Sequence record: PV577658
DNA length: 64,000 nt
Direction: 5' to 3' (one strand)
Source of the DNA: Escherichia phage vB_EcoS_MM-2
Shown: positions 2,947 to 59,351 of the stretch, one piece after another
Layout of the letters: each line of letters starts with the position of its first letter
How positions within the stretch are numbered: the stretch's first letter is position 1
Notes under the pieces: generated by a model
The model's input: the letters and a program-made list of their open reading frames with translations, nothing else
What the model was told of the DNA's origin: nothing
The model's database searches: none
Position numbers and translations under genes: made by a program

Positions 2947-3031
2947 TTTTTATTAGCTGAAATTTGTAATCCGGGCTATTAGTGCTCGGATTATTACATA
3001 ATCTTTTCAGTCGATTGACAGTCAAAATAAA

Positions 3032-3538
3032 TTGTCGTTGACAATTTGGATGGATTATGTAATAATATATGTATTGGAGGTGAGGATGTCATTCACACAG
3101 CAAGAACTTTTAGATAACTTCCGATATGAAGATGGTAAGTTATTTAGAACTACAGGAAGAAATGCAGGGAAAGAATGTTGTGTTTCTACAGGTAACGGAT
3201 ATTATCGTATATCTCTAGGGAATAGGACTATGCTTCGGCATAGAGCAATATTTTTAATGCATCATGGATACTTACCTGATTTAGTAGATCATGTGAATAC
3301 TATAAAAGGTGATGATCGTATTGAAAATCTTAGAGAGCAGACAGTATCCGGTAATCTAAGAAATATCAAATATAAGAAAGGAATGCATGTTTACCCTTCT
3401 GGTAGTAAGAACTGGCAAGTGGTATTTACTATTAACCGTAAACGTATAGTTAAAGGAACATATGACAACTATGAGGTTGCATGTTCTATGGCCAAGATGT
3501 TTAGAGGTCAATTATACGGTAGGGAATCAATCCAGTAA
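3032..3538 (+). CDS. HNH homing endonuclease (likely start at Met ~3086)
   Basis: HNH motif LVDHVNTIKGDDRIENLREQT; free-standing between unrelated genes. Confidence 0.7.
   Translation: MSLTIWMDYVIIYVLEVRMSFTQQELLDNFRYEDGKLFRTTGRNAGKECCVSTGNGYYRISLGNRTMLRHRAIFLMHHGYLPDLVDHVNTIKGDDRIENLREQTVSGNLRNIKYKKGMHVYPSGSKNWQVVFTINRKRIVKGTYDNYEVACSMAKMFRGQLYGRESIQ
3038..3066 (+). promoter_or_regulatory. sigma70-like promoter upstream of the HNH gene, inside a TTGACAGTCAA palindrome region
   Basis: Two TTGACA hexamers (~3014 and ~3038), AT-rich -10 (aataat) 17 bp downstream of the second, then GGAGGTGA RBS. Confidence 0.4.
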
Positions 3539-3546
3539 AATTTCAT

Positions 3547-3600
3547 TTGCAAGGGAGTATTATTTTATAGTATAATATTCCCATAAATGAGAGACATTAG
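3547..3600 (+). promoter_or_regulatory. early-type promoter (TTGCAA-18-TATAAT plus conserved downstream box)
   Basis: ttgcaa ... tataat followed by attcccataaatgagag, a variant of the ATTCATAAATTTGAGAG box seen after other promoters in the window. Confidence 0.55.
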
Positions 3601-4073
3601 TAAAAATTGATTTTGCTAATTTTTCTTGTTTACAATCCGCGATACGGAACAGTTAGGCTGCCCCATTAAGGGTTGTTTTAACTGTTACGTGTTAGTTTTT
3701 AAACAAATAGTTAATAGAATACTTAGCGATCTACATCCCGTAGGAACCCTGGTAAGGCCTCGAAGCAACCTAGTGTGAGGTGGTTGTGAAGTGAGACGGG
3801 AAGAGTGAAAAACTCTGAGAAGTGATGACGTAAGGTATACTGCATCTAGTATGAGCTAGTACATGAAGCATTAGGTGAGCAAATCTGGCTTAGCGGCCAT
3901 CCTCAAGGATTTGTGCGGTATAGTGAAGCGGCAGTGTAGCGTGAAAGGGGAAGTTGCCACCCCCCTTCAGTATTTGCGATTAATTTGTTGAGAAATTGAC
4001 AGTAACAGTTGTTCTATTCTTTCTGAATAGTCCTAAAGAAAACTTATTTCATTTCCAACACAGGAGTATTGTT
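3601..4073 (+). other. ~470 bp non-coding, relatively GC-rich region downstream of a promoter; candidate ncRNA or cis-acting replication element
   Basis: No ORF of 60 aa or more on either strand; local stem-loops (e.g. gaaagggg..cccccttc near 3943-3968); sits directly upstream of the large helicase gene. Confidence 0.3.
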
Positions 4074-6860
4074 GTGTTCTCAATCCTACAAGGTCATGCA
4101 GGATTTCATCGCGATTTAGCCACAGGCATTTGGCGAGAAGTTAAAGCAGAAGACTATCTTTTTGCTAAAAGATTTTCCTCAAAGCATCCTGAAGGTAAAC
4201 CAGCTTCAATGCCCTTCAAGTTTGATGTAATTGATGAAGTTGATCCTCAAACCCTAGTAGAAATGCTCCCTCTTATGAGACGTTTAACGTCTGACCCTCA
4301 TATCGTTGCGGTACGAGGTCGATGTCTTGCACCCAAAAATAATGTGCGGCGTAAGAAGGGCAACTTTAATGTATCTAACCCAAGTCATATAATTGCAATG
4401 GACGTGGATGGTATTGTAGATACAGGTGGTTGTAACAAGTTTGATCTTGTTGGCATGGCTCGACATATTATTAGAATGTTAAATAGTATTAGTGAGGATA
4501 TGTTTCCTCTTGATGCAGGGTTTATTGCTCATGCATCGTCTTCGGCTGGGCTAAAACCAGGTATCCGAATGCACTTAATACTAGAATCTAATGTTAAAGT
4601 AACTCAGGGTCAAATCAAATTCTTATTTACATCTATCAATGAAAGTAGTAGACAAAAGTATGGCTTTGATATTGCCGACTTAGCTTATTACTCTTCCGTA
4701 CAGCTCCATTATTTTGCAGATCCGTTATTTACCGATGGTATAGTAGATCCGTTTAAGGCGGAGGGTGCTTCACGTCTGGTATTTGTTAAGGGTTCTAAAG
4801 TAAACTTACCTAATAATCTGGTTGACTATGAAACAACTAGAGGTGAGTTTAAGGAGGAGTTTTACTCTTTACTCGATCAAATTAAAGGTAAAAAAGCTGC
4901 CTCCGATAAAGTAGAGGAAACTATCAGCGAACTAGAAGAAGCTGAGGATGGAGTGTATCTACGTATCATACCTAAACTCTATCACAGAGCTTTAGAGGAT
5001 GGTGTTGATTTTGCATGGCTAGAAAAAGAAATCCGTCCAGCCTTATCAGAATATATTGCAACCAAAGATAATAGTCGTAATATTCAAGATTACTTTAATA
5101 ACGGTCGTAAACAGGCTCTGAAAGCATTTGTTAATAATTCTAAACGCGATATACCTGATGTTTTAAAAGGTATTCCACTTAAAAAGCTAGAAACTAACTC
5201 TCTAGAAACTGATAACTTCTTGAAATTAAATACTGTACCACCAGAAGGTTATATGACTTTTGTAAAAGCAAGTCTAGGTACAGGTAAAACTACGGCGGTT
5301 GTGCGTTGGTTAGATTCAGGAGTTATTAAAGGTAATTTCTTAGCAATTACCAATACTCGAGCACTGGTATCTTCAAATGCTAAGAAATTTAGTGCAGGAC
5401 AATATGATAAGTCTGTAGATATGCTTAATTTTAAGCGTGGTGCTATTGACCGTATGTCCACAACTATTCACTCTTTGCATAAGTTCAAGAGTTTTATTGG
5501 TCAAATCGATGCAATCTTTATAGATGAATGTGATGCTGTAATGAATGACCTATTATTCGCCCCGGTTGTTAAACAACGTCGTGAATGTATTCAGGTTCTT
5601 CGGGATATTCTTGCAACTGCAAAAATCATTATATTATCTGATGGGGATATTAGTGCAGAAACAATTGAAGCATATGGTTCTTTAATTGAGTTTGATAAAC
5701 CGGTTGCATTTTATAATCATCACCGAAAAATGCTATCAAAAGCTCATGCCTACGAGTTCCCTGATGAATCCAGTATTTGGGTTGCACTTCAGACTTCTCT
5801 AGAGATGGGTGAGAAATCTATCCTAGTATCTGACTGTGGGCCGGATGAACTGAATGAGAAGGGCATGGCGTTGCGTCGTAATACGGGTGCGTTAGTTAAG
5901 GAAATCCACTCAAACTCTACGTCTGATGTAGATATTCGACGTATTCTGGATTACACAACTAATGAGTTAATTGACCAACAAATTGATTGCTTATTATGTA
6001 GTCCATCCGTAACGAGTGGTGTTGACTTCAACTATTTTGATAACGTATTCGTTATTACTAGAACCAGTAACCAAGCGCCAAACATGCGTTTTCAAGCAAT
6101 CAGGCGCGACCGTGGTGCTCAGAACATTTATTATTTTATTGATAAATCTACGAGTGGATTCTCCGCAGGCTCTGAACAATATAATATTGATGAAGGTTGG
6201 CTGGAGTTAGCACAGCAATTATACGCACGTCGTAGGGAGCTGGAGTCTAGGAACTATACTAGTACTTTACGTTATTACTTGCTTGATCAGGGTGCAACTA
6301 TTGATATTTTCAGTGAAAGCTGGGGAACTATCGAAGGTGCAGGTAAAGAGTATACAGAAGAGCGAATCAAAGCCATTTTGTATTCAACTCCTGATTATTG
6401 TGCTCCACGCCATGCAGATGCATATGAAGCTAAACTACTTCTTGTTCGCTATTATCATCTTGAGTCTATTAAAGATGTAACAGTTGAGCATGTTGAGCAA
6501 TACATTAAGGATAAACCGAATGATCGAGCGGCATTCTTCCATAAAATGCACGAGATGTTCTGGGAAGATATTAAGAAGTGTTCAAATGTCACTATCAAAC
6601 CATTCATAGAAGCTCTGAAAGGCAAGAAGAAAGATTTCTTCCTTAAAACAGGTCAGAGTGCTAACCCAAAATATGCCAGAATGTATCTTGGTATGATGGG
6701 TATTGGCAAGGATATGAACACGGAGAATATTGTAGACTGGTACAGAACTTATTGTAAAATCGAGTGTATGCCAATTCCTTTCAAATTCATGACAGAGGAA
6801 GAGAAGGCTATGGCAGAAGAAGTACTGTCCGAACTTGGAGCAACTAATGAAGACGCATAA
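3996..6860 (+). CDS. large P-loop NTPase / helicase, putative replication initiation or origin-binding protein (probable start GTG ~4074)
   Basis: Walker A LGTGKTT and Walker B FIDECD; AGGAG RBS 7 nt before an in-frame GTG at ~4074; about 930-954 aa. Confidence 0.6.
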   Translation: MTVTVVLFFLNSPKENLFHFQHRSIVVFSILQGHAGFHRDLATGIWREVKAEDYLFAKRFSSKHPEGKPASMPFKFDVIDEVDPQTLVEMLPLMRRLTSDPHIVAVRGRCLAPKNNVRRKKGNFNVSNPSHIIAMDVDGIVDTGGCNKFDLVGMARHIIRMLNSISEDMFPLDAGFIAHASSSAGLKPGIRMHLILESNVKVTQGQIKFLFTSINESSRQKYGFDIADLAYYSSVQLHYFADPLFTDGIVDPFKAEGASRLVFVKGSKVNLPNNLVDYETTRGEFKEEFYSLLDQIKGKKAASDKVEETISELEEAEDGVYLRIIPKLYHRALEDGVDFAWLEKEIRPALSEYIATKDNSRNIQDYFNNGRKQALKAFVNNSKRDIPDVLKGIPLKKLETNSLETDNFLKLNTVPPEGYMTFVKASLGTGKTTAVVRWLDSGVIKGNFLAITNTRALVSSNAKKFSAGQYDKSVDMLNFKRGAIDRMSTTIHSLHKFKSFIGQIDAIFIDECDAVMNDLLFAPVVKQRRECIQVLRDILATAKIIILSDGDISAETIEAYGSLIEFDKPVAFYNHHRKMLSKAHAYEFPDESSIWVALQTSLEMGEKSILVSDCGPDELNEKGMALRRNTGALVKEIHSNSTSDVDIRRILDYTTNELIDQQIDCLLCSPSVTSGVDFNYFDNVFVITRTSNQAPNMRFQAIRRDRGAQNIYYFIDKSTSGFSAGSEQYNIDEGWLELAQQLYARRRELESRNYTSTLRYYLLDQGATIDIFSESWGTIEGAGKEYTEERIKAILYSTPDYCAPRHADAYEAKLLLVRYYHLESIKDVTVEHVEQYIKDKPNDRAAFFHKMHEMFWEDIKKCSNVTIKPFIEALKGKKKDFFLKTGQSANPKYARMYLGMMGIGKDMNTENIVDWYRTYCKIECMPIPFKFMTEEEKAMAEEVLSELGATNEDA

Positions 6861-7365
6861 ACCAATGCCTCCTATGGCATTTATCCTAGAAAAGCTTAGG
6901 TATGACGAAAGTACTGGGGACTTAATTTGGTTATCTGGCCCAAGGAAGGGAAAGGTAGCGGGCTCCAAAATGAAAACTGGGAGACAGCTAGAGTTTATGA
7001 TAAATGGGGGGCGGACAGCTTACTTAGCCCATAGAATAATCTGGTTTATAAAGACAGGTGAAGATCCTGGAGATAAAACTATTGACCATAAAGACGGTGA
7101 TAGTTTAAACAACTTGTGGGATAATTTACGTAAGGCTACCTATTCCGAAAATGGAAAGAATAAGAAGTGTTCTACTAATTCTACCGGATTCACTGGAGTT
7201 GTAAAACGAGGTAATAGGTATATGGCCTACGCTTACTGCGATGGAAAGCAACATATTTTTGGTAGACGAGATACCCCGGAAGAAGCCCATCAGCTATACC
7301 TTAGGGGAGTTAAAGAGCTGTTTGGTGAATTTAATCCCTCGGAGAGATATGACAGTGAAGAATAA
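6835..7365 (+). CDS. HNH homing endonuclease with AP2-like DNA-binding domain
   Basis: IDHKDGDSLNNLWDNLRKATYSEN (HNH); GFTGVVKRGNRYMAY (AP2-like); start overlaps the 3' end of the upstream gene. Confidence 0.7.
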   Translation: MEQLMKTHKPMPPMAFILEKLRYDESTGDLIWLSGPRKGKVAGSKMKTGRQLEFMINGGRTAYLAHRIIWFIKTGEDPGDKTIDHKDGDSLNNLWDNLRKATYSENGKNKKCSTNSTGFTGVVKRGNRYMAYAYCDGKQHIFGRRDTPEEAHQLYLRGVKELFGEFNPSERYDSEE

Positions 7366-7582
7366 AAAATGGGAAACAAGGAAGTTTCCAGTAAAAGAAC
7401 GTAAAGTTCCTGTTTATGATACTTCGGAGAAGCTATGTAGGGTGGTACCGCACAGATTAGCTGGCATCCCTAACATATCCGAGTGGTTACTTAAACAACG
7501 GAGGACTAGCGTATCCCTTCGCATAGGGTTTGAGTTAGATAAAGTATATGCTGAACTTTCTTCTTTGCTCAAGGAATCGTAA
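7241..7582 (+). CDS. hypothetical protein (likely start at internal Met ~7349)
   Basis: Track ORF; GGAGAG RBS precedes the internal ATG; no motif. Confidence 0.35.
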   Translation: MESNIFLVDEIPRKKPISYTLGELKSCLVNLIPRRDMTVKNKKWETRKFPVKERKVPVYDTSEKLCRVVPHRLAGIPNISEWLLKQRRTSVSLRIGFELDKVYAELSSLLKES

Positions 7583-7590
7583 AAATTTAT

Positions 7591-7650
7591 TTGCATAGTG
7601 CAAAAAATTTCTGTATAATAGATTCATAAATTTGAGAGAGGAGTTTAAAT
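7591..7650 (+). promoter_or_regulatory. strong early promoter of the T5 PN25 type
   Basis: aaaatttatttgcat(-35)..17 bp..tataat(-10) then agattcataaatttgagagaggagttt; matches my recollection of the PN25 promoter used in expression vectors. Confidence 0.65.
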
Positions 7651-8355
7651 ATGGCTGGTTCTCGTAGAAAGAAACATATCCATGAAATCCCGGATGAAGT
7701 CTTTAAAAAGGTTATAGAGCATCTGGAGAACGGTGGTACTAAGAAAGCAGCATGTGAAATGCTCGGCGTATCATCCAATCCAACTATGGAAAGGATGATT
7801 GAAGAATGGCAAGACCGCCAGATTCAAGTTGCCGAAATGAAGAAAAAGAAACGTGGCACACTCATTGAAGGCATTGAGTTAGCTAACGTTATTGAGCAGT
7901 ATTTATCTGGTGATTCTTTTGAAGAAATTGCCGATCGTAATTACCGCTCTGTAGCAATGGTTAAATCTGTTCTGGAACGATATGGTGCTCTACTTCGTTT
8001 GAACGATATTGTAGATCCATTGAATCCTCCAATTATTCCTGATGATGCTGTAGCAGAAGAATTTGCAGTTGGTGAGCTTGTTTGGGTTCCTGGATACCAG
8101 TGTATCGGTGAAATCAAAAAAGCAATGGATAATCCTGTTGGTTGCTACCGTGTATGGCTTCTATCCGAAGGCAAACAACAGAACGTTCATTATATGAATT
8201 ACGAGCTGGCTTCTGTTAAACATCTGGAAAAGTTAGGGGTAGACGTAAAATCTCTAGGGTATAAGTGGACTCGTGAAGAAATTATTACGTTGATTAACGA
8301 AGCTGTTAAGGCTGCTCTGAAACTTGATAAAGAAAAAGGAAAACGCCGTGAGTAA
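7651..8355 (+). CDS. putative helix-turn-helix DNA-binding / regulatory protein
   Basis: N-terminal GGTKKAACEMLGVS HTH-like segment; lysine-rich linker. Confidence 0.45.
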   Translation: MAGSRRKKHIHEIPDEVFKKVIEHLENGGTKKAACEMLGVSSNPTMERMIEEWQDRQIQVAEMKKKKRGTLIEGIELANVIEQYLSGDSFEEIADRNYRSVAMVKSVLERYGALLRLNDIVDPLNPPIIPDDAVAEEFAVGELVWVPGYQCIGEIKKAMDNPVGCYRVWLLSEGKQQNVHYMNYELASVKHLEKLGVDVKSLGYKWTREEIITLINEAVKAALKLDKEKGKRRE

Positions 8356-8599
8356 GCTAACAGATTTGCTTAAGGATGGTGAAACAAAAACCGTGTATCG
8401 TAGAAGCTGGGATAATGACAATAATGGCTTAGTGTTACTAACTTTAGACGCTGACTCAGATGTAGCTACCCAACATACCTGGGTAGCTGGTAATTATCCC
8501 TATAGTGAGGTTGTTACGTTAACAGTATGCGAAGCTATTGCCGACGATTGGGAGATTGCCAGCATTGATGATATGCTTGCTGTTGGCCTGGTGGAGTAA
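8324..8599 (+). CDS. hypothetical protein (likely start GTG ~8348)
   Basis: Track ORF; no motif. Confidence 0.35.
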   Translation: MIKKKENAVSKLTDLLKDGETKTVYRRSWDNDNNGLVLLTLDADSDVATQHTWVAGNYPYSEVVTLTVCEAIADDWEIASIDDMLAVGLVE

Positions 8600-8616
8600 C
8601 TACTGAAAAATTTCAG

Positions 8617-8660
8617 TTGCTTAATCCTATAATTCTTGATATAATATTCTCATAGTTTGA
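8617..8660 (+). promoter_or_regulatory. early promoter (TTGCTT-17-TATAAT)
   Basis: ttgctt..tataat followed by attctcatagtttgaaag, a variant of the downstream box. Confidence 0.5.
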
Positions 8661-8702
8661 AAGAACTATTCTGTTTAATTCTTAATTAAGGAAATATAAA
8701 AT

Positions 8703-9113
8703 ATGACTACTCCAACTCAGTGGACTGATGAACTGTTCGAAAAAATGTCTTCCGAATACGTTGCTCGTATGGAGCAATTCCCAGAGGATGAACGTCCGGG
8801 TGTTAGCATGGAAATTGTTAGCGAAATTGCCCAGGAAAATGGTGTAACTCCGAACGGTTTTCGTATGAAGCTGACTAAAGCAGGTTTGTATATCAAGAAA
8901 GCTGCTGGCTCTGCTTCTAAATCTAGCGCATCTACTGGAGAAAAGGCTTCTGGTGGTTCTCGTACCTCCAAAGCTCAAGCTCATGCCGATCTTCGTTCAG
9001 CATTCTCTGATGCTGGCTTAGCACCGGATTTTCTGGATGATGCAATTATCGATAAACTGACCGGTAAAGCGGCTGCTCATCTGGCAGAAGCAATCCGAGC
9101 TATCACTAAGTAA
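8703..9113 (+). CDS. putative DNA-binding protein with HTH-like module, strongly codon-biased
   Basis: MEIVSEIAQENGVTPNGFRMKLTKAGL resembles the repeated module in ORF 12111..12878; CTG/GCT/CGT-rich codon usage. Confidence 0.4.
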   Translation: MTTPTQWTDELFEKMSSEYVARMEQFPEDERPGVSMEIVSEIAQENGVTPNGFRMKLTKAGLYIKKAAGSASKSSASTGEKASGGSRTSKAQAHADLRSAFSDAGLAPDFLDDAIIDKLTGKAAAHLAEAIRAITK

Positions 9114-9149
9114 TTTTTAGATAAATCCACCAACAAAAGGAACACAGTT

Positions 9150-9446
9150 ATGACCAAAGCTGAAATTATCGCACAATGTGAAAAATTTGGTGAGTTTTAT
9201 CTTCATTACGAGAAACTTCGTCAGAAAGGAACCACGTATCTTCAGGGTACGATGGAATTTGATCCAGCCCAAGATAAATATCTAGCTGAGCGTATTAAAC
9301 GTGAACGTATTCGTAAAGCGAAAGATGATGAGATCCTTGTCTTCTCTCGTACTAATGATAGCTTCCGTTTTATTCCTGTCGAAAAAGTCCGTCGTGTGAC
9401 TAGCCTCCAATCAGAGTTAGATCGTGCTTCTCCAGTAGGCCGATAA
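9150..9446 (+). CDS. hypothetical protein
   Basis: Track ORF followed by a terminator hairpin. Confidence 0.4.
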   Translation: MTKAEIIAQCEKFGEFYLHYEKLRQKGTTYLQGTMEFDPAQDKYLAERIKRERIRKAKDDEILVFSRTNDSFRFIPVEKVRRVTSLQSELDRASPVGR

Positions 9447-9456
9447 GAAACCAATT

Positions 9457-9478
9457 AGCCCCTATATGGGGCTTTTTG
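9457..9478 (+). terminator. rho-independent terminator
   Basis: agcccc-tatat-ggggct hairpin followed by ttttgtg. Confidence 0.6.
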
Positions 9479-9496
9479 TGTATTTGGGATATGTAA

Positions 9497-9805
9497 ATGA
9501 GCGAACAGGTAAATCAAAACTATGAAGGACACGTTGATGACCAGTCCATCATACTTTGGGAGAAGGAGGGAGAACAAGTAAGATTAACAGTATCTGAATT
9601 TCGTGGGAATCTATACATGGGTATTCGTTACTGGCTTCTTGATATTAATGATGAGTGGTTTCCAACGAAATCTGGCTTCTCTTTTCCTTACACCCTAGAA
9701 ACAACATCACAGCTTTTCTATGCGTTTACACAGATTCTTAGCGAATCTGAGGTTTTACATGAAGTACAGAAACGAGCTGAAGAACTCAAAGCCAAGAATG
9801 CCTAG
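9497..9805 (+). CDS. hypothetical protein
   Basis: Track ORF; stop codon lies in the loop of the following terminator hairpin. Confidence 0.4.
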   Translation: MSEQVNQNYEGHVDDQSIILWEKEGEQVRLTVSEFRGNLYMGIRYWLLDINDEWFPTKSGFSFPYTLETTSQLFYAFTQILSESEVLHEVQKRAEELKAKNA

Positions 9806-9818
9806 TTCTTGGCTTTTT
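9791..9818 (+). terminator. rho-independent terminator
   Basis: gccaagaa-tgcctag-ttcttggc (8-bp stem) followed by tttttcttt. Confidence 0.6.
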
Positions 9819-9832
9819 CTTTATAAATGTAC

Positions 9833-9880
9833 TTGCTTTCAACTCAGTTTTGTTATATAATATTTATATAAATTAATGAG
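9833..9880 (+). promoter_or_regulatory. early promoter (TTGCTT-17-TATAAT)
   Basis: ttgctt..tataat then atttatataaattaatgagag downstream box. Confidence 0.55.
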
Positions 9881-9891
9881 AGGGTTGCAAA

Positions 9892-10164
9892 GTGAAAAAG
9901 ATAAGTATAAGTACACTTAAACCTTTCCCGTACATCGGACAGCCTCTTATACTTATGTGGGAGGAGAAGATTAATGGGGAAAAGTATACTAAAACTAGAA
10001 GTGGGTATAAGCTGACTTCACTTCATTACGAAAAAGAAGTATTAGTAGCTGAAATATACTCTCCGTTGTCAGATAGGCTAGTAAAAACTACATATTTGCA
10101 TCGTTGCAAAAATTATACATGGCACGGATCCACTAGACAACCCTCATACTGTGAGGCAGAATAA
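9892..10164 (+). CDS. hypothetical protein (GTG start)
   Basis: Track ORF beginning at gtgaaaaag. Confidence 0.35.
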   Translation: MKKISISTLKPFPYIGQPLILMWEEKINGEKYTKTRSGYKLTSLHYEKEVLVAEIYSPLSDRLVKTTYLHRCKNYTWHGSTRQPSYCEAE

Positions 10165-11136
10165 ATGACCAATGTAAAAGACTTTATTAAACGCTGTCAA
10201 GAAGCATATTATCAAGGTATGTCTTTAATCTCTGACGAAGAATATGATCGTCTGATTAAAAGATTTCCGTTAGAAGAAGAGATCGGGCCTAAGGGCGATA
10301 TTCCACATCTGTATCGTATGTATTCTTTACAGAAAGTTTATTATAATCGTGGAGATAAACCCCCGTTTAACCCATTAGGTCAGGTAGAAACTGATAAGTT
10401 AGATGGTTGTGCAATTTCTCTGTTATATATTAATGGCGAATTTGTTCAAGCACTAACTCGTGGTAACGGTATTCTAGGGAATGATGTCACAAGCAACGTA
10501 AGATTGCTGAACATCCCTAAAAAGATTTCCCAAAAAGTACCTACTCAAATCACTGGTGAAGTTCTAATTACAAAAGAAGTAGAAAATAAACGTAACTTTG
10601 CCTCTGGTGCTATTAACCTCAAAGATAGTGATGATTTTGTACAACGTATCGGAGAAGGTGGTTTAATCTTCGTTGCATATGGTATCCAGTGTTCTGCTGA
10701 ATCTGTAGGTATTACAGAAGCATATTTAAAAGATATGCTTTGGCTGGAGAATGAGAACTTCTTAACAGTTGTTAATGTGCGTTCTTTCTTTAAATGGATT
10801 CCGACGGACGGTAAAGTTGTTCGTATTAATGATAACAACAAATTCTTCCGTGAAGGCTGGACTAATAAATTCCCTCGTGGAGCATTCGCTATTAAAGAGG
10901 ATGAAGAAGGCGAGATTACAACTCTTACTAAAGTTGAATGGCAGGTAGGAGCTTCTGGTAAAGTAACTCCAGTTGGTTATTTCGAACCGGTAATTATTGA
11001 TGATGCTACAATTGTTAAAGCGACTCTTAATAACGTTGATTATATTAACTCTCTTGATCTAGAGATCGGTTGCCAGATTCGAGTGATTCGTGCTGGTGGT
11101 GTAATCCCGTGCATAGTAGAGCGAGTATATGATTAA
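10165..11136 (+). CDS. ligA: NAD-dependent DNA ligase, N-terminal subunit (adenylation domain)
   Basis: KxDG adenylation motif (TDKLDGCAIS), LTRGNG, and LigA-like layout. Confidence 0.75.
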   Translation: MTNVKDFIKRCQEAYYQGMSLISDEEYDRLIKRFPLEEEIGPKGDIPHLYRMYSLQKVYYNRGDKPPFNPLGQVETDKLDGCAISLLYINGEFVQALTRGNGILGNDVTSNVRLLNIPKKISQKVPTQITGEVLITKEVENKRNFASGAINLKDSDDFVQRIGEGGLIFVAYGIQCSAESVGITEAYLKDMLWLENENFLTVVNVRSFFKWIPTDGKVVRINDNNKFFREGWTNKFPRGAFAIKEDEEGEITTLTKVEWQVGASGKVTPVGYFEPVIIDDATIVKATLNNVDYINSLDLEIGCQIRVIRAGGVIPCIVERVYD

Positions 11137-11187
11137 TACATAGCCCTTTGCTACCCATCTACCATATCGGAATTATAAAGTGGTTAT

Positions 11188-11215
11188 TGACATTTTCGCC
11201 GCTTAGGTATATACT
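11188..11215 (+). promoter_or_regulatory. promoter-like element in the ligase inter-ORF spacer (TTGACA ... TATACT)
   Basis: ttgacattttcgccgcttaggtatatact. Confidence 0.4.
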
Positions 11216-11279
11216 ATTATCATTCAGTTGAGGGATAGAAAGTTATGGCGAGGGTAAGCAAAGTTAGTTAAAATTGTAG

Positions 11280-11330
11280 TTGCTAAATGCTTAAATACTT
11301 GTTATAATATTTATATAAATTGATAAGGAA
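11280..11330 (+). promoter_or_regulatory. early promoter (TTGCTA-17-TATAAT) upstream of the ligase C-terminal subunit
   Basis: ttgcta..tataat then atttatataaattgataagg; same family as the 9833 promoter. Confidence 0.55.
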
Positions 11331-11335
11331 GAAAT

Positions 11336-12118
11336 TTGATGAAAATCGAAATTCCAACACAATGTCCCTCTTGTGGTTCTAAGCTAGATCTTGTCAACGG
11401 ACAATTATTTTGTCGGAATAAGTCCAACTGTCCAGCGCAATCAAGTAAGTTAATTGAGAACTTCTGTACAAAAATGAAGTTAAAGGGCTTTGGTCCAAAA
11501 ACTATTGAAAAGCTGGAGCTGACGAAGATCTCAGAACTATTTTACCTAACCGAAGAAGATTTGGTTAGAGCCGTGGGTAGCAAGGTTGCCGCTAAGTTAA
11601 TTAGCGAATTAAATACTAAAGTTCGCGGAGACATTGACTTTGGTTCAGTTCTCGGTTCTTTAGGAATCCCTCTAATTGGAGAGGTTGCAGCAAAGAAATT
11701 ATCCCAAAATTGCACTAGCTTCCACGATGTGAAGGCTGACGGCAAGGCTGGAGAAAACTACAAAGCCTGGCTAAATTCCCCGCAAGGCAAGGATGTTATC
11801 GAACTACCGTGGAAATTCTCAACTGGTATTAAGGGCACTAAAGCTGACGTCATCATTACAGATGAATTAGTTGCCCAGCCAAATGGAATCGCGGTATGTA
11901 TTACCGGATCTTTGCAAGATTTTGCAAATCGAACGGATGCAACAAACTATTTAGAAAGTCTAGGGTATACGGTTAAGAAATCCGTTACCAAAGACGTAAA
12001 ATACCTGATCTGTGAGGATGAATCAAAACGTTCTTCCTCATCTTATAAGAAAGCCGAAACGAATGGGATAGAAATCCTGTCGATTAAAGAACTATTGGAG
12101 AAAAATAATAATGTCTAA
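11336..12118 (+). CDS. ligB: NAD-dependent DNA ligase, C-terminal subunit (Zn finger, HhH, BRCT-like)
   Basis: CPSCGSKLDLVNGQLFCRNKSNCPAQ Cys4 zinc finger typical of LigA; likely ATG at ~11339. Confidence 0.7.
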   Translation: MMKIEIPTQCPSCGSKLDLVNGQLFCRNKSNCPAQSSKLIENFCTKMKLKGFGPKTIEKLELTKISELFYLTEEDLVRAVGSKVAAKLISELNTKVRGDIDFGSVLGSLGIPLIGEVAAKKLSQNCTSFHDVKADGKAGENYKAWLNSPQGKDVIELPWKFSTGIKGTKADVIITDELVAQPNGIAVCITGSLQDFANRTDATNYLESLGYTVKKSVTKDVKYLICEDESKRSSSSYKKAETNGIEILSIKELLEKNNNV

Positions 12119-12878
12119 ACTGAACTGGAACGTAGAAGGTGTAACCGAGTCTCTGAAAGCAAAAGCCACTGCTCTGGGTGTTTCTGTAATCTCTCAAGAA
12201 CAAGTAGCTGCTATCGCTGCTGAACTGGCTGCTGAAACTGGCAAAGATGTTACTGCTCGCTCTGTTGGCTCTAAACTGCGTAAAGAAGGTTTTGAAGTAC
12301 AGAAAGCTAACGAAGTACAGAAATCCCCGTGGACTCCTGAGCAGGAAGCTGAACTGGTTGATTTCCTGAACGCTCATGCTGGTCAGTATACCTATGCTGA
12401 AATCGCTGCTGCTGTAGCTGGTGGTCAGTTCGGTGCTAAACAGGTACAGGGTAAGATCCTGAGTCTGGAAATGACCGCTTCTGTTAAACCAACTGAAAAA
12501 GCTGCTGCTGTTCGTTCCTTTACTCCGGATGAAGAAACTGATTTTGTTAATCAGGTTGTTGCTGGTGCTACTATTGAAGCTATCGCTGCTCACTTCGGTC
12601 GTAATATCAAGCAGATCCGTGGTAAAGCTCTGAGCCTGCTTCGTGAAGGTCGTATCGCTGCTATGCCGGTACAGGAAACTTCCAGTGCTAAAACTCGTGA
12701 AGATCTGTTAGAAGGTCTGGATCTGGTTAACATGACTGTTGCTGAGATCGCTGAGAAAACTGGTAAGTCTGAGCGCGGTGTTAAATCTATGCTGTCTCGT
12801 CGTGGTCTGGTTGCTAAGGACTATGATGGTGCCGCTAAGCGTGCTAAACTGGATGCAAAAGCTGCGGCTGCTGAATAA
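12111..12878 (+). CDS. abundant DNA-binding protein with four tandem HTH-like repeats (possibly D5-like)
   Basis: Four ~30-aa repeats of the form (V/Y/I)..(I/Q)(A/V)A..(A/G)....G.......G(S/K).L...G; strong codon bias suggesting high expression. Confidence 0.45.
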   Translation: MSKLNWNVEGVTESLKAKATALGVSVISQEQVAAIAAELAAETGKDVTARSVGSKLRKEGFEVQKANEVQKSPWTPEQEAELVDFLNAHAGQYTYAEIAAAVAGGQFGAKQVQGKILSLEMTASVKPTEKAAAVRSFTPDEETDFVNQVVAGATIEAIAAHFGRNIKQIRGKALSLLREGRIAAMPVQETSSAKTREDLLEGLDLVNMTVAEIAEKTGKSERGVKSMLSRRGLVAKDYDGAAKRAKLDAKAAAAE

Positions 12879-12885
12879 TCTGGTA

Positions 12886-12930
12886 AATTAAACCTAAGGG
12901 GAGGGGGCTATGCTCCTTCCCCTTTTTGCA
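12886..12930 (+). terminator. possible attenuating terminator hairpin
   Basis: G/C-rich imperfect hairpin aaggggaggggg..tccttcccc followed by tttttgc. Confidence 0.35.
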
Positions 12931-14433
12931 TTTAGAAGGCACGAAAGCGTGCAAAGGAGAATGACCTTGTTTAACGTGCAAGCTGTAGTGTTGAAGATGC
13001 TTCTAGCTTCTGAACAGAAGCAAATAGCATTGGAAACATTCTCAAAACTGCATAAAGATCATTTTAATGACGCTTTCTCCTCAATTTACCAAGCCGTCCA
13101 GAATTATTATAAAAAATATAACACAATGCCGTCCATTGACGCACTGATGCTTGAGGCTAATAGGAACGCCCGCCTTTCTCAAGCTCTAGTCGTTTTAGCT
13201 AACACTCAAATTCCAGAAGTGAGCATGGAACAGGCACTTGAAGTCCTAGAGGCCGAATATACACAGGATTTATTCCTAAAGCTTCTAGAAACAGACGTGC
13301 TTCAAGATTTAACAATGCTGGATCAGGGAGAAATTCTCAACCGAGTTGCCTCCCTTCACTTAAAATTAGAAGAGAAAGTAACGAATACTGGAAAAGTATT
13401 CAACGCAGATAACATGCGTATTTTCCAGAGAGAAGAAGATACCAAACTGAACCTAATCGCTCTTGGTATTTGTAATGAGTTCGACGCTCAAATTGGTTTA
13501 GCTCGCACAGAAACGTTACTGCTTGGTGGTTGGCGTGGTACTGGTAAATCCATTATCTGTTCAAACATACAGGTTCAGCAATATTTGAATGGAGATATTG
13601 CTCCATACTTCTCAATTGAGATGAAAGAACATGAAGTATTTAGACGTAATCTAGCCATGCTAGCTGGTGTATCAGCACTAGCAATGCGTAATAATACTCT
13701 AGAAGGTGCAGCTCTGTTGAGACTAGCCAGAACTAGAGCTAGGATGTTCAACGGTGGTGAAGAGCTTTTCGATAACTTCGTTAAACAGTATACAATGGCT
13801 AAGATGAGTGATTTCTACGATATGGAGAGTAAGCTAATAGAAGGGTATGAGCTACATACTCCTATGATTATTGTTTATGACCCTGAGTTGTCTATTACAA
13901 CAGTTGACGTAGAATTAAATAAATTAGTTGCTAGATATGGTGATAAAGTTACAGTAGCTCTACTTGACTATATTAACCAAACCCGACTTCCAGACTCTAA
14001 AACCATTGATATGTATGACTGGAAAGAACAGATGGTTGTTAGCTCGTCTTTCAAATCTATCTGCCAGAAACATAACGTGGCTGGCGTAGCTCCTTACCAG
14101 ATCGATCAAGACGGTAGAACACGTATGTCAAAGGGGATTCTTGATTCCGCAGACATGGCTGCTAATCTTAATGCTGCAAAAGCTGATAATGGTCAAGGTG
14201 CTATTATGTTTGACTTCGTTAAGACTCGTTCTTCTGATAGCGTGAAGTTTATGCCTAAAATGAACTGGGAAACTCTGCGAATGGATAACACTACCAACCT
14301 AGCAATGGAAGATATATCTCAAATGGAAGCTGAGTTCGTTATCCCTATTGAGAAGGATAAGCCGGCTCAACCTAAACGTGCTAAGAAAGACAAAGCTGAA
14401 AATTCAACAGGTGAACAGGCCAGCGATATATGA
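12910..14433 (+). CDS. DnaB-like replicative helicase (likely start at Met ~12961)
   Basis: Walker A-like GGWRGTGKS; RecA-like C-terminal region; AAGGAG RBS before the internal Met. Confidence 0.65.
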   Translation: MLLPLFAFRRHESVQRRMTLFNVQAVVLKMLLASEQKQIALETFSKLHKDHFNDAFSSIYQAVQNYYKKYNTMPSIDALMLEANRNARLSQALVVLANTQIPEVSMEQALEVLEAEYTQDLFLKLLETDVLQDLTMLDQGEILNRVASLHLKLEEKVTNTGKVFNADNMRIFQREEDTKLNLIALGICNEFDAQIGLARTETLLLGGWRGTGKSIICSNIQVQQYLNGDIAPYFSIEMKEHEVFRRNLAMLAGVSALAMRNNTLEGAALLRLARTRARMFNGGEELFDNFVKQYTMAKMSDFYDMESKLIEGYELHTPMIIVYDPELSITTVDVELNKLVARYGDKVTVALLDYINQTRLPDSKTIDMYDWKEQMVVSSSFKSICQKHNVAGVAPYQIDQDGRTRMSKGILDSADMAANLNAAKADNGQGAIMFDFVKTRSSDSVKFMPKMNWETLRMDNTTNLAMEDISQMEAEFVIPIEKDKPAQPKRAKKDKAENSTGEQASDI

Positions 14434-14963
14434 TAACACAGGAAAGGCTAAAAGAGTTATTTGATTACTCCCCAGGAACTGGGGAGTTTACTAGAAAAGT
14501 ATCTAGAGGTAATCAGAAAGCTGGTAGTATAGCTGGTTCTTTAAGAAAAGATGATTATATATGTATATGGGTAGATGGAAAGCCTTACTATGCGCATCAA
14601 CTAGCTTTTCTCTATATGGAAGGTTATTTACCTGAAGAAGTAGACCATATAAACCGTATACGAAGTGATAATCGTTGGGTTAACCTTAAAGATTCTTCTC
14701 ACCAAGAGAATAGCAGGAATAAAGCAGCTAAAAGTAAATCAGGGTATATAGGAGTTAGTTGGAATAAACAAAGGCAAAAATGGCAAGTTCAACTAAGAGA
14801 TACCAATAAAAAGAAAATATTCGGTGGATATTTTGAGTACCAGAATTTAGAATCAGCAGTAGATAAGATTAATAATCTACGATTACAATTTCATGGGGAA
14901 AATGCTATTCAAGAAATATTCGACCCGTCTAATTATCCTGCATTAGAGGAGATAAATTCATGA
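14430..14963 (+). CDS. HNH homing endonuclease with AP2-like domain
   Basis: EVDHINRIRSDNRWVNLKDSSHQEN (HNH); GYIGVSWNKQRQKWQ (AP2-like); ATGA overlaps with both helicase stop and primase start. Confidence 0.7.
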   Translation: MITQERLKELFDYSPGTGEFTRKVSRGNQKAGSIAGSLRKDDYICIWVDGKPYYAHQLAFLYMEGYLPEEVDHINRIRSDNRWVNLKDSSHQENSRNKAAKSKSGYIGVSWNKQRQKWQVQLRDTNKKKIFGGYFEYQNLESAVDKINNLRLQFHGENAIQEIFDPSNYPALEEINS

Positions 14964-15850
14964 GTAGAATAACAGAATTACTTGATCTTAAGGGAATTGA
15001 GTATAAAGATACTGGTGGAGATATTTTAATCTGTTGCTTAAATCCATATCATGATGATAAACACCCAAGTTTGCGTATTGATCCTGAAACCGGGATTATG
15101 CACTGCTTGAGTTGCGGTTTTGGCAAAGGTATACCTAGTATTTATCATTATTTTAATGAGACTCAATATAGACAATCTCCAAGACTATCCCAAGTACGTA
15201 AAAAGATTTCAGAGATTAGAAATGGATCTACGAATCTTGCAATCCCAGAATCTGCCTGCCTTTTCGAAGGTGATTTCCGAGGTATAAGTTCTAAGACCTT
15301 GAAGAAATATTTTGCTTTCCAACACCAAGAGAACTGGGAAGGCAGAATTGTATTCCCAATCACAGATGCTGTTGGACGCAATATCCTATTTTTGGGTCGT
15401 TCTATAAACAGTTCTGCCCCTCCTAAATACTTAGTAAAACCAAAACAGGTTTCACCACCAATTTTCCCTGTACGATATAATACTCCAGTTCTTATTCTAG
15501 TTGAAGGTATCTTTGATATGCTGAACCTAGAGGATAGTGGTATAGACTATGCTTCTTGCTGCTTTGGTACACATCAGTTTACTTCAGACAACATTGCAGA
15601 TAAGTTCAGTCCGTACATTATTGCTGGTGTTAAAGTTGTTGTTATCTTACTAGATAATGATGCTTCTGGTAATAAAGCTGCACAAGCACTGGCCAAGCTA
15701 ATTCGTACAAAAACGCGTTTAACACCTGTAGTTGCTAACTTTCTTCTGCCTGAAGGTAAAGACCCAGGTGACTTAAATAAAGAAGAAATTGATATGTTAG
15801 CAAAACGTATTGAAATTTTAGTTGCTGAATCGCTTAAAGATTTGGTATAA
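14960..15850 (+). CDS. DnaG-like DNA primase (zinc-binding domain plus TOPRIM)
   Basis: CCLNPYHDDKHPSLRID...HCLSCGFGKG zinc-binding motif; TOPRIM LVEGIFDMLNL and LLDNDASG. Confidence 0.7.
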   Translation: MSRITELLDLKGIEYKDTGGDILICCLNPYHDDKHPSLRIDPETGIMHCLSCGFGKGIPSIYHYFNETQYRQSPRLSQVRKKISEIRNGSTNLAIPESACLFEGDFRGISSKTLKKYFAFQHQENWEGRIVFPITDAVGRNILFLGRSINSSAPPKYLVKPKQVSPPIFPVRYNTPVLILVEGIFDMLNLEDSGIDYASCCFGTHQFTSDNIADKFSPYIIAGVKVVVILLDNDASGNKAAQALAKLIRTKTRLTPVVANFLLPEGKDPGDLNKEEIDMLAKRIEILVAESLKDLV

Positions 15851-15876
15851 TAGTCCTAAATAACTGAGGAGTTACT

Positions 15877-16206
15877 ATGGAATATGTATATATTTATGCG
15901 GATGTTCCAGTGTATGATAGTATAACACACAAAGAGGTTAAACTAGAGCGGTTTACAACACTGGAGTCCCTTAACAAACGAAAGAATTTCCATTTATTTG
16001 GTGATCCTAAATTACCTGCATCTTATATTTACTTTAAAGTAAAAGATACAGGTCAAGAGGTATACCTAACATATGATTGGGCTGTTGTAGAAAATACTGA
16101 GCAATCTATGAAAGCGCTAGATGCTTTTCTGCGCATAGATGAAGAATTTCGGGTACTAGAAAAGCAGCGCAATGAAATGCGTAAATTACTTCACACATAT
16201 AAATAG
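15877..16206 (+). CDS. hypothetical protein
   Basis: Track ORF with RBS GAGGAG. Confidence 0.4.
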   Translation: MEYVYIYADVPVYDSITHKEVKLERFTTLESLNKRKNFHLFGDPKLPASYIYFKVKDTGQEVYLTYDWAVVENTEQSMKALDAFLRIDEEFRVLEKQRNEMRKLLHTYK

Positions 16207-16208
16207 TA

Positions 16209-16240
16209 TTTGCTATTATCCCAATATTTTGATATAATAT
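16209..16240 (+). promoter_or_regulatory. early promoter (TTGCTA-18-TATAAT) upstream of the DNA polymerase gene
   Basis: ttgctattatcccaatattttgatataat. Confidence 0.5.
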
Positions 16241-16299
16241 ATTGGTAAGTTAGAGAAGAAACACTGAAGTTATACTTACTTACCAAGAGGAGATTAAAT

Positions 16300-18867: not shown

Positions 18868-19357
18868 TTTCAAATTGCCCGTATATGCTTTACGGGCTTT
18901 TGTATCAATTGAGCAAGAAGGTGATTATTCCGTAATTACAACAAGATATAATAAATATGTACTAGATAACAGGAAGTTGCCTGGCACTTTTTCTCAACGT
19001 AGGCTTATTCTATTTGAGAAACGGAAAGAATTACCATATAAGCTCTATCCTATTAGGGGCAGAATATCCATGTTGTCTCAATTAGTTGGGTCAAAGCGTA
19101 GCCAATTTATAGATTCTGATGGAAATCTTATTAACTGGAAGAAAACTACGTTTTATGATGTTGTCACCTCTAAAGTTTTGCATTCAGCTAGAATTTACAA
19201 CGGAAAATACCAATGCTATGTAGCTAAAGTTCCATATCCATTTGTATTATCCTATGTTCCAGCTTATATAAGCTATATTCTGGTAAATAATAGCCCTGTT
19301 ATTTACCAAGTCCATCAAGAGGAGCCTGAAATTCCTAGACTTAGAATAAAATTATGA
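18860..19357 (+). CDS. hypothetical protein
   Basis: Track ORF overlapping polymerase stop and helicase start. Confidence 0.4.
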   Translation: MLDFKLPVYALRAFVSIEQEGDYSVITTRYNKYVLDNRKLPGTFSQRRLILFEKRKELPYKLYPIRGRISMLSQLVGSKRSQFIDSDGNLINWKKTTFYDVVTSKVLHSARIYNGKYQCYVAKVPYPFVLSYVPAYISYILVNNSPVIYQVHQEEPEIPRLRIKL

Positions 19358-20706
19358 AGGTTGTTATATCTAATAAAGCCTATTTCAAGCCCGATGATGA
19401 ACTTTGGGATTATTGTAGTAAACAAACCACTTATCACATTGAGACAATGACTAGTAAATACCCTATTATGTATAAGAATAGTGGTGTTGTTGCCAAAGAG
19501 ATTAAGTGGATTCCTATCACGCGTCTGGATTTACTAGATGCTAAAGGAGTAAAATACGAATTAGTCGATAAACGCACATTAGCTCCAGTAGATATACCAA
19601 GACCTAAGTTCAAGCTGCGTGAAGAAGACCAGCTCCCAATATATGAAGAGTGCGATGATACCTGTATTATTAATGGTAAGCCTGGATTTGGCAAAACTAT
19701 CCTAGCCCTGGCACTTGCGTATAAATTTGGCCAGAAAACTTTGGTAATTTGTACCAACACATCTATTCGTGAAATGTGGGCGGCAGAAGTTCGTAAATGG
19801 TTTGGGTTTGAACCAGGTATCATAGGTTCTGGAAAATACAATATTGATCCACCAATTGTGGTCAGTAATATTCAAACAGTGAATAAACATGCGAATAATC
19901 TTTCTAAAGTATTCGGTACTGTTATAGTTGATGAAGTTCACCATTGTGTGGCTACAACTTTCACTAACTTCCTAGAAATATCATGTGCTCGCTATAAGAT
20001 TGGGCTATCTGGAACATTAAAACGTAAAGATGGTCTACAAGTTATGTTCAAAGATTTCTTTGGATATAAGATCTTTAGCCCACCGGTTAATAATACTGTT
20101 GCACCTACAATCCATAGGTATTCCGTACCTGTTGAGTTATCAGGAAATCAGAATGTGCCATGGGCATTACGTGCTAACGATGTATACAACCATCCTGAGT
20201 ATCGAGAGACTATTATAAATCTAGCACATTTATACGTGAATATGGGACATAAAGTACTCATTGTAAGTGATAGAACAGAGCTAATCCAAACAGTACTAGA
20301 AGCTCTTACACAACGTGGTGTTACAACGTATGAAATTATAGGGGCAACCCACTTGGATGACCGATTAAAAATTCAGGAAGATATAGCAAAAGGTGGACCT
20401 TGTGTACTTGCAGCCGCTCAAAGTATCTTCTCTGAAGGTATTTCTCTTAATGAGTTGTCTTGTTTAATAATGGGAAGTCTTATTAATAATGAGTCTCTCA
20501 TTGAACAGCTTGCAGGTCGTGTTCAACGTATTGTTGATGGTAAACTCGACCCGATTGTTGTAGATCTAATTATGAAAGGTGGCACTGGGCTAAGGCAGGC
20601 TTCTGGACGTATGGCAGTATATCGTAACAACGGGTGGAAAACTATTACTATGACTCCAGAGAAAGCAGTTCAATTAGCTAAAATTGCATTTGGCAACAGC
20701 TCATAA
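19354..20706 (+). CDS. SF2 DEAH-box helicase (T5 D10-like branch-migration helicase)
   Basis: Walker A GKPGFGKT, DEAH box VIVDEVHHC, helicase C-terminal region with QLAGRVQR. Confidence 0.7.
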   Translation: MKVVISNKAYFKPDDELWDYCSKQTTYHIETMTSKYPIMYKNSGVVAKEIKWIPITRLDLLDAKGVKYELVDKRTLAPVDIPRPKFKLREEDQLPIYEECDDTCIINGKPGFGKTILALALAYKFGQKTLVICTNTSIREMWAAEVRKWFGFEPGIIGSGKYNIDPPIVVSNIQTVNKHANNLSKVFGTVIVDEVHHCVATTFTNFLEISCARYKIGLSGTLKRKDGLQVMFKDFFGYKIFSPPVNNTVAPTIHRYSVPVELSGNQNVPWALRANDVYNHPEYRETIINLAHLYVNMGHKVLIVSDRTELIQTVLEALTQRGVTTYEIIGATHLDDRLKIQEDIAKGGPCVLAAAQSIFSEGISLNELSCLIMGSLINNESLIEQLAGRVQRIVDGKLDPIVVDLIMKGGTGLRQASGRMAVYRNNGWKTITMTPEKAVQLAKIAFGNSS

Positions 20707-20720
20707 ATGATGTATAATAT
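20690..20720 (+). promoter_or_regulatory. early promoter (first of a tandem pair)
   Basis: ttggca..17 bp..tataat then atatacataaatttgagagag. Confidence 0.5.
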
Positions 20721-20789
20721 ATACATAAATTTGAGAGAGAAAGTTTCGGATTGATAAGAAAGTCCGAAGCAGAAAAATAAAAATTTTAG

Positions 20790-20825
20790 TTGCTAAATTC
20801 TCTCGAAATCTAGTATAATATATAC
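20790..20825 (+). promoter_or_regulatory. early promoter (second of the tandem pair)
   Basis: ttgcta..18 bp..tataat then atatacataaattcgaggag. Confidence 0.5.
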
Positions 20826-20926
20826 ATAAATTCGAGGAGAAAACAAAAATTAAATTCTTCGATTATGAAAAGCTATACTTACTAGCTAGAGGAAATTCCG
20901 ACCTAATTATTAAGTTATTCAAAAGA

Positions 20927-21211
20927 ATGCTTACAGAGCCTGATGCTCACCAATTGTTGGTCGGTTCCTCATTCATTTTGAATGAATCAACTATTGTTGA
21001 TAATCCAAATAAATTGTCTAATAGACAACTGGCAGAATATCTAGGAATTTTAAGTCTACGAAATTATGCCGAATACAAGTTTACAAACGATCCTAGTTTG
21101 GACATGCAATATGTTCCAGTATGGATACCACGTTTAGTAATCGACACTAACCCATTAATCGCAATTAACAAATCAAAATTAATCTTTAAAGAGGAAATAA
21201 AATATGGCTAA
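20927..21211 (+). CDS. hypothetical protein
   Basis: Track ORF. Confidence 0.35.
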   Translation: MLTEPDAHQLLVGSSFILNESTIVDNPNKLSNRQLAEYLGILSLRNYAEYKFTNDPSLDMQYVPVWIPRLVIDTNPLIAINKSKLIFKEEIKYG

Positions 21212-21977: not shown

Positions 21978-21984
21978 TAAATAG

Positions 21985-22008
21985 AGGGGCTTCGGCCCCT
22001 TTCTTTTT
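21985..22008 (+). terminator. rho-independent terminator
   Basis: aggggc-ttcg-gcccct hairpin followed by ttctttttaa. Confidence 0.65.
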
Positions 22009-35608: not shown

Positions 35609-35635
35609 AGTTAATTTCTCCTCTTTAATAACAAT

Positions 35636-35664
35636 ATTATAATAGTATTAGAAAATTTTATCAA
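35636..35664 (-). promoter_or_regulatory. sigma70-like promoter (TTGATA-17-TATAAT) upstream of the Dit-like gene
   Basis: Minus-strand reading: ttgataaaattttctaatactattataat. Confidence 0.5.
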
Positions 35665-52335: not shown

Positions 52336-52364
52336 TTGCTTTCATCCCTCTATTTTGCTATAAT
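52336..52364 (+). promoter_or_regulatory. early promoter (TTGCTT-17-TGcTATAAT) for the lipoprotein gene
   Basis: ttgctttcatccctctattttgctataat then agattcataaatt box. Confidence 0.6.
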
Positions 52365-52395
52365 AGATTCATAAATTAGAAATGGAGAGATAAAT

Positions 52396-59099: not shown

Positions 59100-59273
59100 C
59101 TACTTATTTTATGAAATAAATTAATTGACTTTTATTTGTTAGTATGCATCGGAAAGATAGCAGACTAATAATTGCTAGAATGATAATCATGCTGGTGGAT
59201 TGTAACGACCTGAATTATTAGCAGACTATTAATCACGGAAAAATCTCATTAGCCAACTAACTATTTCATGATA

Positions 59274-59300
59274 TATAATATACATATAAATTAATGAGAA
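59274..59300 (+). promoter_or_regulatory. promoter-like element of the early family
   Basis: tataat followed by atacatataaattaatgagaaa box; no convincing -35; no gene for ~430 bp downstream. Confidence 0.35.
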
Positions 59301-59351
59301 ATAATAACTATAAGAAATCATCTAGCTAAGTGAGAACCACTATCATTTAAG

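Follow-up and report, generated by a model that had tools for sequence, protein, structure and literature searches.

The evidence supports the identification of ten sites in the window (here the whole 64,000-nucleotide stretch analysed, from Escherichia phage vB_EcoS_MM-2, PV577658) as the classic strong early promoters of a T5-like coliphage, PN25 included. The conserved box downstream of their -10 hexamers is real but ordinary, being the described discriminator plus the initially transcribed sequence; the promoter consensus, the ATATT discriminator and the effect of the N25 transcribed region have all been published, and the feature is already known in all essentials. We consider it highly probable (about 85%) that these are sigma-70-dependent early promoters in which the box, as discriminator and initially transcribed sequence, acts at the level of DNA. 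The box has a common anatomy and a fixed register, occurs at positions orthologous to those in T5, is restricted to the early class and is conserved family-wide; at copies other than N25 an effect on promoter escape may be expected by analogy, the literature measurement covering N25 only. Few bacterial promoters are as well characterised as those of the T5 early class, and PN25 is the core of the T5/lac expression promoter (pQE vectors) and a standard template for abortive initiation.

Ten early promoters and their T5 orthologues

A 2-kb stretch around the element under study is 100% identical to Escherichia phage vB_EcoS_MM-1 (PV577657.1; record position = window position + 53931), and the window phage, a Tequintavirus, shares about 95% identity with phage T5. 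The window begins in the right arm of the early region, spans the late region and ends in the right terminal repeat. The T5 genome was rebuilt from four stretches and its 46 annotated promoters were extracted. When the window was compared with T5, promoter features of the T5 record (AY543070) were found to underlie nine of the ten sites; the T5 counterpart of the tenth, at 59274, is present at ~6074 and carries no promoter annotation in that record. In vitro transcription served to map these T5 promoters (Gentz and Bujard 1985, as cited in PMC7472727), and primer extension on infected cells showed Ppol and P15A to be early (Klimuk et al. 2020, PMC7472727). A literature search for a T5 transcriptome or start-site map gave no relevant result. 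The initial annotation had proposed at least nine strong early promoters and a partial copy; all ten coordinates contain what it described, and the epithet is borne out by the nine orthologies with annotated T5 promoters and by the early timing of the T5 pol promoter.

All copies lie on the + strand. The one at 7591..7645 (-35 TTGCAT, 17-nt spacer, TATAAT 7614-7619, +1 7626) had been likened to PN25 and is indeed the orthologue of T5 'promoter P-N 25', with 92% identity over 150 nt and complete identity from -12 to +20; its -35 differs from the TTGCTT of T5 P-N25, as does its spacer. It drives the D2 gene (ATG at 7651), and its transcribed sequence at 7626-7645, ATAAATTTGAGAGAGGAGTT, is identical over these 20 nt to the downstream sequence region of N25 (Kammerer et al. 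1986, as described in PMC12464699). The P-N26 orthologue upstream of D3 (8617..8671; TTGCTT, 17-nt spacer, TATAAT 8640-8645, predicted +1 8652) has the weakest box, ATTCTCATAGTTTGAAAGA, with a leave-one-out rank of 52 of 128,000. The ligA-region promoter (9833..9887; TTGCTT, 17-nt spacer, TATAAT 9856-9861, predicted +1 9868) is the orthologue of T5 feature 65284-65358, with T5 homology stopping at +15, where a 277-bp cassette starts, and the P-K28a orthologue (11280..11334; TTGCTA, 17-nt spacer, TATAAT 11303-11308, predicted +1 11315) lies upstream of ligB. At 3547..3602 (TTGCAA, 18-nt spacer, TATAAT 3571-3576, predicted +1 3583), with the box ATTCCCATAAATGAGAGA downstream of the hexamer, the copy occupies the position of T5 feature 58999-59073, an unnamed promoter ahead of the origin-binding protein gene; relative to T5 its sequence is replaced from -50 to +8, up to GAGAGA, and homology starts again at GAGAGACATTAG.

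The pol promoter (16210..16264, initially placed at about 16209; TTGCTA, 17-nt spacer, TATAAT 16233-16238) carries a variant box, ATATTGGTAAGTTAGAGAAG, which forms the 5' arm of a leader hairpin. The highest box score belongs to the P31A orthologue (20690..20744; TTGGCA, 17-nt spacer, TATAAT 20713-20718, predicted +1 20725), and the P31B orthologue (20790..20845; TTGCTA, 18-nt spacer, TATAAT 20814-20819, predicted +1 20826) follows 101 bp downstream. The T5 early promoters P-N25, P-N26, P-K28a, P31A, P31B and Ppol thus have counterparts at orthologous positions with like architecture and near-equal sequence, except for the window pol promoter, whose -35 half is new owing to a cassette insertion. 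The llp promoter (52336..52390; TTGCTT, 17-nt spacer, TATAAT 52359-52364, predicted +1 52371), orthologous to T5 feature 110349-110423 upstream of llp, is the sole + strand promoter with the box within the late region. The partial copy in the terminal repeat (59249..59305) has been described correctly: TATAAT (59274-59279) and the full box ATACATATAAATTAATGAGA are present, and the -35 is just TTAGCC at a 19-nt spacing.

The ten sites are real, but the family is larger than first listed, and three promoters without the full box were missed. The P-K28b orthologue (11187..11215, + strand; TTGACA-17-TATACT) is of the canonical sigma-70 type and lacks the family box. An extra promoter at 15823..15851 (+ strand; TTGCTG, 17-nt spacer, TATAAT) is the upstream half of the T5 pol promoter, with an inserted ORF (15877-16206) in place of the box. 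The third is the P-G25 orthologue on the minus strand (-10 at 35641-35636). Downstream of it, at 35606-35641 on the minus strand, lies the sequence ATTAAAGAGGAGAAATTAACTATGAGA, which we take to be the 'RBSII' ribosome binding site of the pQE vectors with its first codons; if so, the pQE site would derive from the T5 late gene of the P-G25 orthologue. A further minus-strand site in the late region (48626-48661) reads TTTACA-17-TATACT followed by ATATTCATACAGTTGAGGAG, a partial early-type box; its score of 18.9 is just over the shuffle maximum, and its T5 counterpart has no annotation.

Register and composition of the downstream box

The family alignment was anchored on TATAAT, with zero offset variation, and the offset of the box from this hexamer is constant across all ten copies. 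A perfect TATAAT followed by an invariant A (TATAATA) occurs in every copy. The core had been given initially as TTGC(T/A)T-17/18-TATAAT, of which the -10 part stands, but the -35 is looser: TTGCWT-N16-19-TATAAT is exact at four sites only (7591, 8617, 9833, 52336; 0.21 expected), the remaining hexamers being TTGCAA (3547), TTGCTA (11280, 16210, 20790) and TTGGCA (20690). With TTGCTT, TTGCAT, TTGCTA, TTGCAA or TTGGCA, nine of the ten copies have a T5-type -35, and the spacer is 17 or 18 nt in nine; the exception in each respect is the 59274 copy. Farther upstream, columns -46 to -40 are A-rich in all ten copies, with one invariant A and 1.2-1.7 bits per column.

The position of the start site follows from the published N25 sequence: since TATAATAGATTCAT is given as -12 to +2 of N25 (Klimuk et al., PMC7472727), +1 is the A of cATAAA. 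The box accordingly runs from the discriminator (-6..-1) across the start site to about the 17th transcribed base. It consists of A at -6, an AT-rich discriminator, C or T at -1, ATAAATT from +1 to +7, and a purine-rich, nearly C-free tail from +9 to +17, so that the consensus after TATAATA reads (T/G)(A/T)(T/C)N(C/T), then ATAAATT and the purine run. Four columns never vary in the multiple alignment of the ten copies, namely A(-6), T(+2), A(+3) and T(+6), and the information content of +1..+7 equals that of the -10 hexamer and exceeds that of the -35. Purines make up 72% and C 3.5% of +1..+20 in the ten copies, compared with 50% and 19% in the window, a composition that none of 20,000 random samples reached. 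Copies other than 7591 have in common with N25 only +1..+7 and the purine bias. The discriminators are ATATT or ATATA in three copies, AGATT in two, ATTTA in two, and ATTCC, ATTCT and ATACA in one each.

The degenerate pattern TATAATAKWYNBRTARDT has ten matches in the window, exactly the ten sites and all on the + strand, against 0.02 expected. A shared downstream sequence had been noticed at the outset in the form of a literal 17-mer, ATTCATAAATTTGAGAG; the sharing is clear once the copies are aligned on TATAAT, but the literal string is too strict as a family descriptor, with one mismatch or fewer at two sites only. When up to three mismatches are allowed, it yields four matches against 0.63 expected, a count reached in 1 of 100 shuffles and not significant alone. 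A scan with a generic sigma-70 consensus (3000-22000) returned 76 sites against 58.6 expected and so does not single out the family. With a 20-nt position weight matrix (PWM) built from the downstream sequence only, 10 of the 11 top scores among 128,000 positions sit directly after TATAAT, with leave-one-out ranks from 1 to 52. The 59274 copy, left out of the training of the first PWM, scored 29.9 against a shuffle maximum of ~15.

The box in T5 and distant relatives

The family in T5 comprises about 40 annotated members. The window-trained downstream PWM exceeds 10 bits, the cut-off used here (the 99.9th percentile of the background is 4.7), at 15 of the 27 T5 left-arm early promoters, all of them outside the window and none orthologous to a copy within it, and at nine of the 11 right-arm early promoters. 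In several lower scorers, P-H207 and P13a among them, the box is present but displaced by one base. None of the three annotated late and none of the three pre-early T5 promoters reaches the cut-off.

Relatives were chosen by the identity of their DNA polymerase, namely Klebsiella phage B01 (78%), Serratia phage Slocum (73%) and the Vibrio phages KIT04 (59%) and D302 (51%), and ~42 kb around each polymerase gene were compared. The window PWM found matching architecture upstream of early genes in all four, and the degenerate pattern is confined to the early-gene strand in T5, B01, Slocum, KIT04 and D302. As a guard against circularity, the relatives' promoters were gathered by TTG-N19-21-TATAAT alone. 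Taken over the regions -6..-1 and +1..+7, the two enterobacterial phages had an excess information of 0.62 and 0.72 bit per column and the two Vibrio phages one of 0.39 and 0.41 bit, compared with just 0.11-0.13 bit in the control region +17..+23. The consensus in the relatives is unchanged (A at -6, C at -1, ATAAATT), and the start-region consensus is found at about 25-30 promoters per genome, in the distant relatives as well. Upstream of the D2 orthologue of Vibrio phage D302, TATAAT is followed by AGATTCATAAA, as in T5 P-N25.

Restriction of the box to the early class is also compatible with a regulatory role. The box might be a cis-determinant of that class, read, for early shutoff at late onset, by a phage factor or by polymerase that a phage protein such as gpT5.026 has modified, a possibility that we hold only tentatively. 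Its presence in most early promoters and in none of the late or pre-early ones points in this direction, although the comparison set is limited to three promoters of each of the latter classes, as does its retention across Demerecviridae. T5 early and late promoters differ chiefly in the discriminator, which is ATATT in every early promoter; binding of polymerase to the -5/+2 segment is weakened by gpT5.026, and without gpT5.026 early transcripts go up and late transcripts go down, about fivefold each (Klimuk et al., PMC7472727). The box, however, shows no operator-like dyad symmetry, the palindrome ATTTATATAAAT occurring in two of the ten copies only, and no DNA-binding factor is known; a class signal could, moreover, hold alongside an effect on escape. 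A more specific version, in which -6 to +17 would be a Demerecviridae-wide early-class signal read by phage-modified polymerase, its modules perhaps doubling as cassette junctions, appears doubtful to us.

Comparison with the published descriptions locates these observations more exactly. The consensus reported for phage AKFV33, TTGCTw, 17-18 nt and TATAATA with AT-rich segments at -43 (AAAAATT) and +1 (TAAATT) (Niu et al. 2012, PMC3326045), is what the initial annotation described; that paper mentions neither a purine-rich stretch at +9..+17 nor a confinement to early promoters nor conservation beyond Tequintavirus. The ATATT discriminator of Klimuk et al. (PMC7472727) corresponds to -6..-2 of the box, but in the window the discriminators vary and the conserved segment reaches +7.

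A probable role in promoter escape

On the reading that we favour, the promoters would be recognised by unmodified host RNA polymerase through an UP-element-like A-tract at about -43, a -35 TTGCTw, a 17-18 nt spacer and TATAATA, joined to a start region made up of an AT-rich discriminator, an A start, ATAAATT and a purine-rich, C-poor transcribed run. The box would work in DNA within the initiating polymerase, where it may influence start-site choice, the properties of the open complex and promoter escape. Near-consensus promoters would hold the polymerase very tightly, making escape the rate-limiting step, and the native transcribed sequence would reduce abortive cycling and accelerate escape, so that the promoters stay highly productive.

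N25 indeed forms extremely stable open complexes, with escape being rate-limiting (Hsu and Han 2025, PMC12464699). Full-length RNA drops about tenfold when its +3..+20 is exchanged for the antiDSR sequence (Kammerer 1986, as described in PMC12464699), and on supercoiled DNA no variant escapes as fast as the native sequence (half-times of 1.0-11.2 min vs 0.3 min; PMC12464699). On short linear templates, the T7 A1 transcribed sequence placed on N25 gives an equal or better productive yield (PMC12464699), so that escape efficiency alone leaves the near-invariant T(+2), A(+3) and T(+6), from E. coli to Vibrio phages, unexplained. The purine content of the transcribed sequence correlates with productive yield (PMC5961368), and the 72% purine of the box fits this correlation. 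The downstream region of N25 has been studied as a property of a single promoter; here it is seen as a family-wide consensus.

A different action in DNA, to which we give very little credence, would be that TAAATT (+2..+7) serves as a -10-like element in the non-template strand that recaptures sigma-70 and causes a promoter-proximal pause at about +16 to +18. TAAATT is also the -10 of lambda PR'. It agrees with TATAAT at four of six positions, including A2, which is invariant, and T6, which is present in nine of ten copies; the invariant T(+6), however, falls where the -10 consensus has A. Decades of N25 gels also speak against such a pause, the abortive products described being 2-10 nt only (PMC12464699), and in the N25 and sigma-pausing literature, including PMC4005639, we found no report of a sigma-dependent pause at native N25. 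Such a pause, which could be a loading point for a regulator, is pure conjecture.

Leader sequences

The initial annotation left open whether the box is a shared initially transcribed region or a 5' UTR element. The first description stands, for the segment from -6 to about +17; the second is the weaker half. A box acting in the RNA would be a shared 5' leader, either an A/U-rich translational enhancer combined with a Shine-Dalgarno sequence or a stability element of the 5' end. GAGAG or GGAG lies 5-10 nt before the start codon at 7591, 9833, 11280 and 52336, as a possible ribosome binding site, and an element anchored at the RNA 5' end would likewise keep a constant spacing from the -10. Between +1 and the first start codon, however, lie anything from 26 nt to about 100 nt or more, P31A is followed by P31B and not by a gene, and the T5 promoters P13b and P16-17 bear the box yet precede stable RNAs, not proteins. 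No Rfam family matched anywhere in the window, and folding of the ten predicted leaders gave no common fold, the box being unpaired in about half of them and engaged with unrelated partners in the others. We hence judge an RNA-level leader element quite unlikely.

Individual leaders have features of their own. The pol leader (16245-16318) opens with the hairpin GGTAAGT...ACTTACC just before the ribosome binding site; the hairpin is kept in T5 and in the Klebsiella and Serratia phages, with weak covariation evidence, and a different 5' hairpin takes its place in Vibrio phage KIT04. Because the pol start in relatives corresponds to the position of TTG 16300, the MM-1 annotation of pol (ATG 16390, 825 aa) is probably 30 codons too short. 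The predicted leader of the 3547 promoter (3583-3632) forms a strong 5' hairpin (-20 kcal/mol) in which the box is paired with downstream sequence; it precedes a stretch of ~490 nt with small ORFs only, and then the origin-binding protein gene.

Promoter modules, gene cassettes and the terminal repeat

Promoter modules could also have spread by duplication and recombination, with the downstream box as a passenger, an explanation that we regard as highly improbable. Non-orthologous copies are 93% identical over 29-31 nt (e.g. P-N25/P31A and P31A/P31B), and mosaic junctions between the window phage and T5 lie at TATAATA or GAGAG in three promoters. Against mere inheritance, conservation is position-specific, with T(+2), A(+3) and T(+6) invariant while spacers and flanks vary; the corresponding positions are kept in Vibrio phages that have ~50% protein identity with the window phage, and a function of the N25 segment has been measured (PMC12464699).

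Three mosaic junctions between the window phage and T5 coincide with promoter motifs. A 375-bp cassette (15853-16227) lies between two TATAATA copies (junctions 15846-15852 and 16233-16239) and splits the T5 pol promoter, whose upstream half now stands at 15823-15851, with a new promoter at 16210-16238. The cassette occurs in 50 of 438 T5-like genomes but not in T5 itself, and its ORF (15877-16206) encodes 109 aa assigned to a PHROG of unknown function. A 277-bp cassette (9883-10159) starts directly after GAGAG of the ligA-region promoter and brings an extra ORF (9892-10164). Neither cassette ORF has a Pfam match; both fall into PHROG families of unknown function. The segment 2962-4000, which contains an HNH endonuclease gene, is replaced relative to T5, with T5 homology back at GAGAGACATTAG in the 3547 promoter. 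Repeated promoter modules may act as recombination junctions for gene cassettes; three junctions are too few for a claim, and indels are anyway expected in intergenic DNA. In T4-type phages, mobile regulatory cassettes termed PeSL, reportedly described by Arbiol et al. in 2010, are said to carry early-promoter modules at the borders of variable cassettes. The location of promoter modules at cassette borders is alike in the window, but no stem-loop partner was found here and there are three junctions only.

In the terminal repeat, the promoter-like copy at 59249-59305 is conserved in T5 (AY543070, ~6050-6100), within Davison's Repeat Region 2; the pre-early promoter annotated for the T5.011 orthologue follows ~415 nt downstream of it. 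Of the 21 DnaA-box-like sequences that the window contains (TTATCCACA, up to one mismatch), seven fall within 410 nt (59024-59433) of non-coding terminal repeat and include an inverted pair at 59067/59099; this cluster corresponds to the DnaA boxes known from earlier work on the T5 first-step-transfer region.

Significance for T5-like phages

The ten promoters, which have no annotation in the MM-1 record, are now cleanly annotated, and their start-region consensus is common to distant Demerecviridae. The finding bears on how T5 switches between temporal classes with host sigma-70 polymerase only, a question that is open according to Klimuk et al. (PMC7472727).
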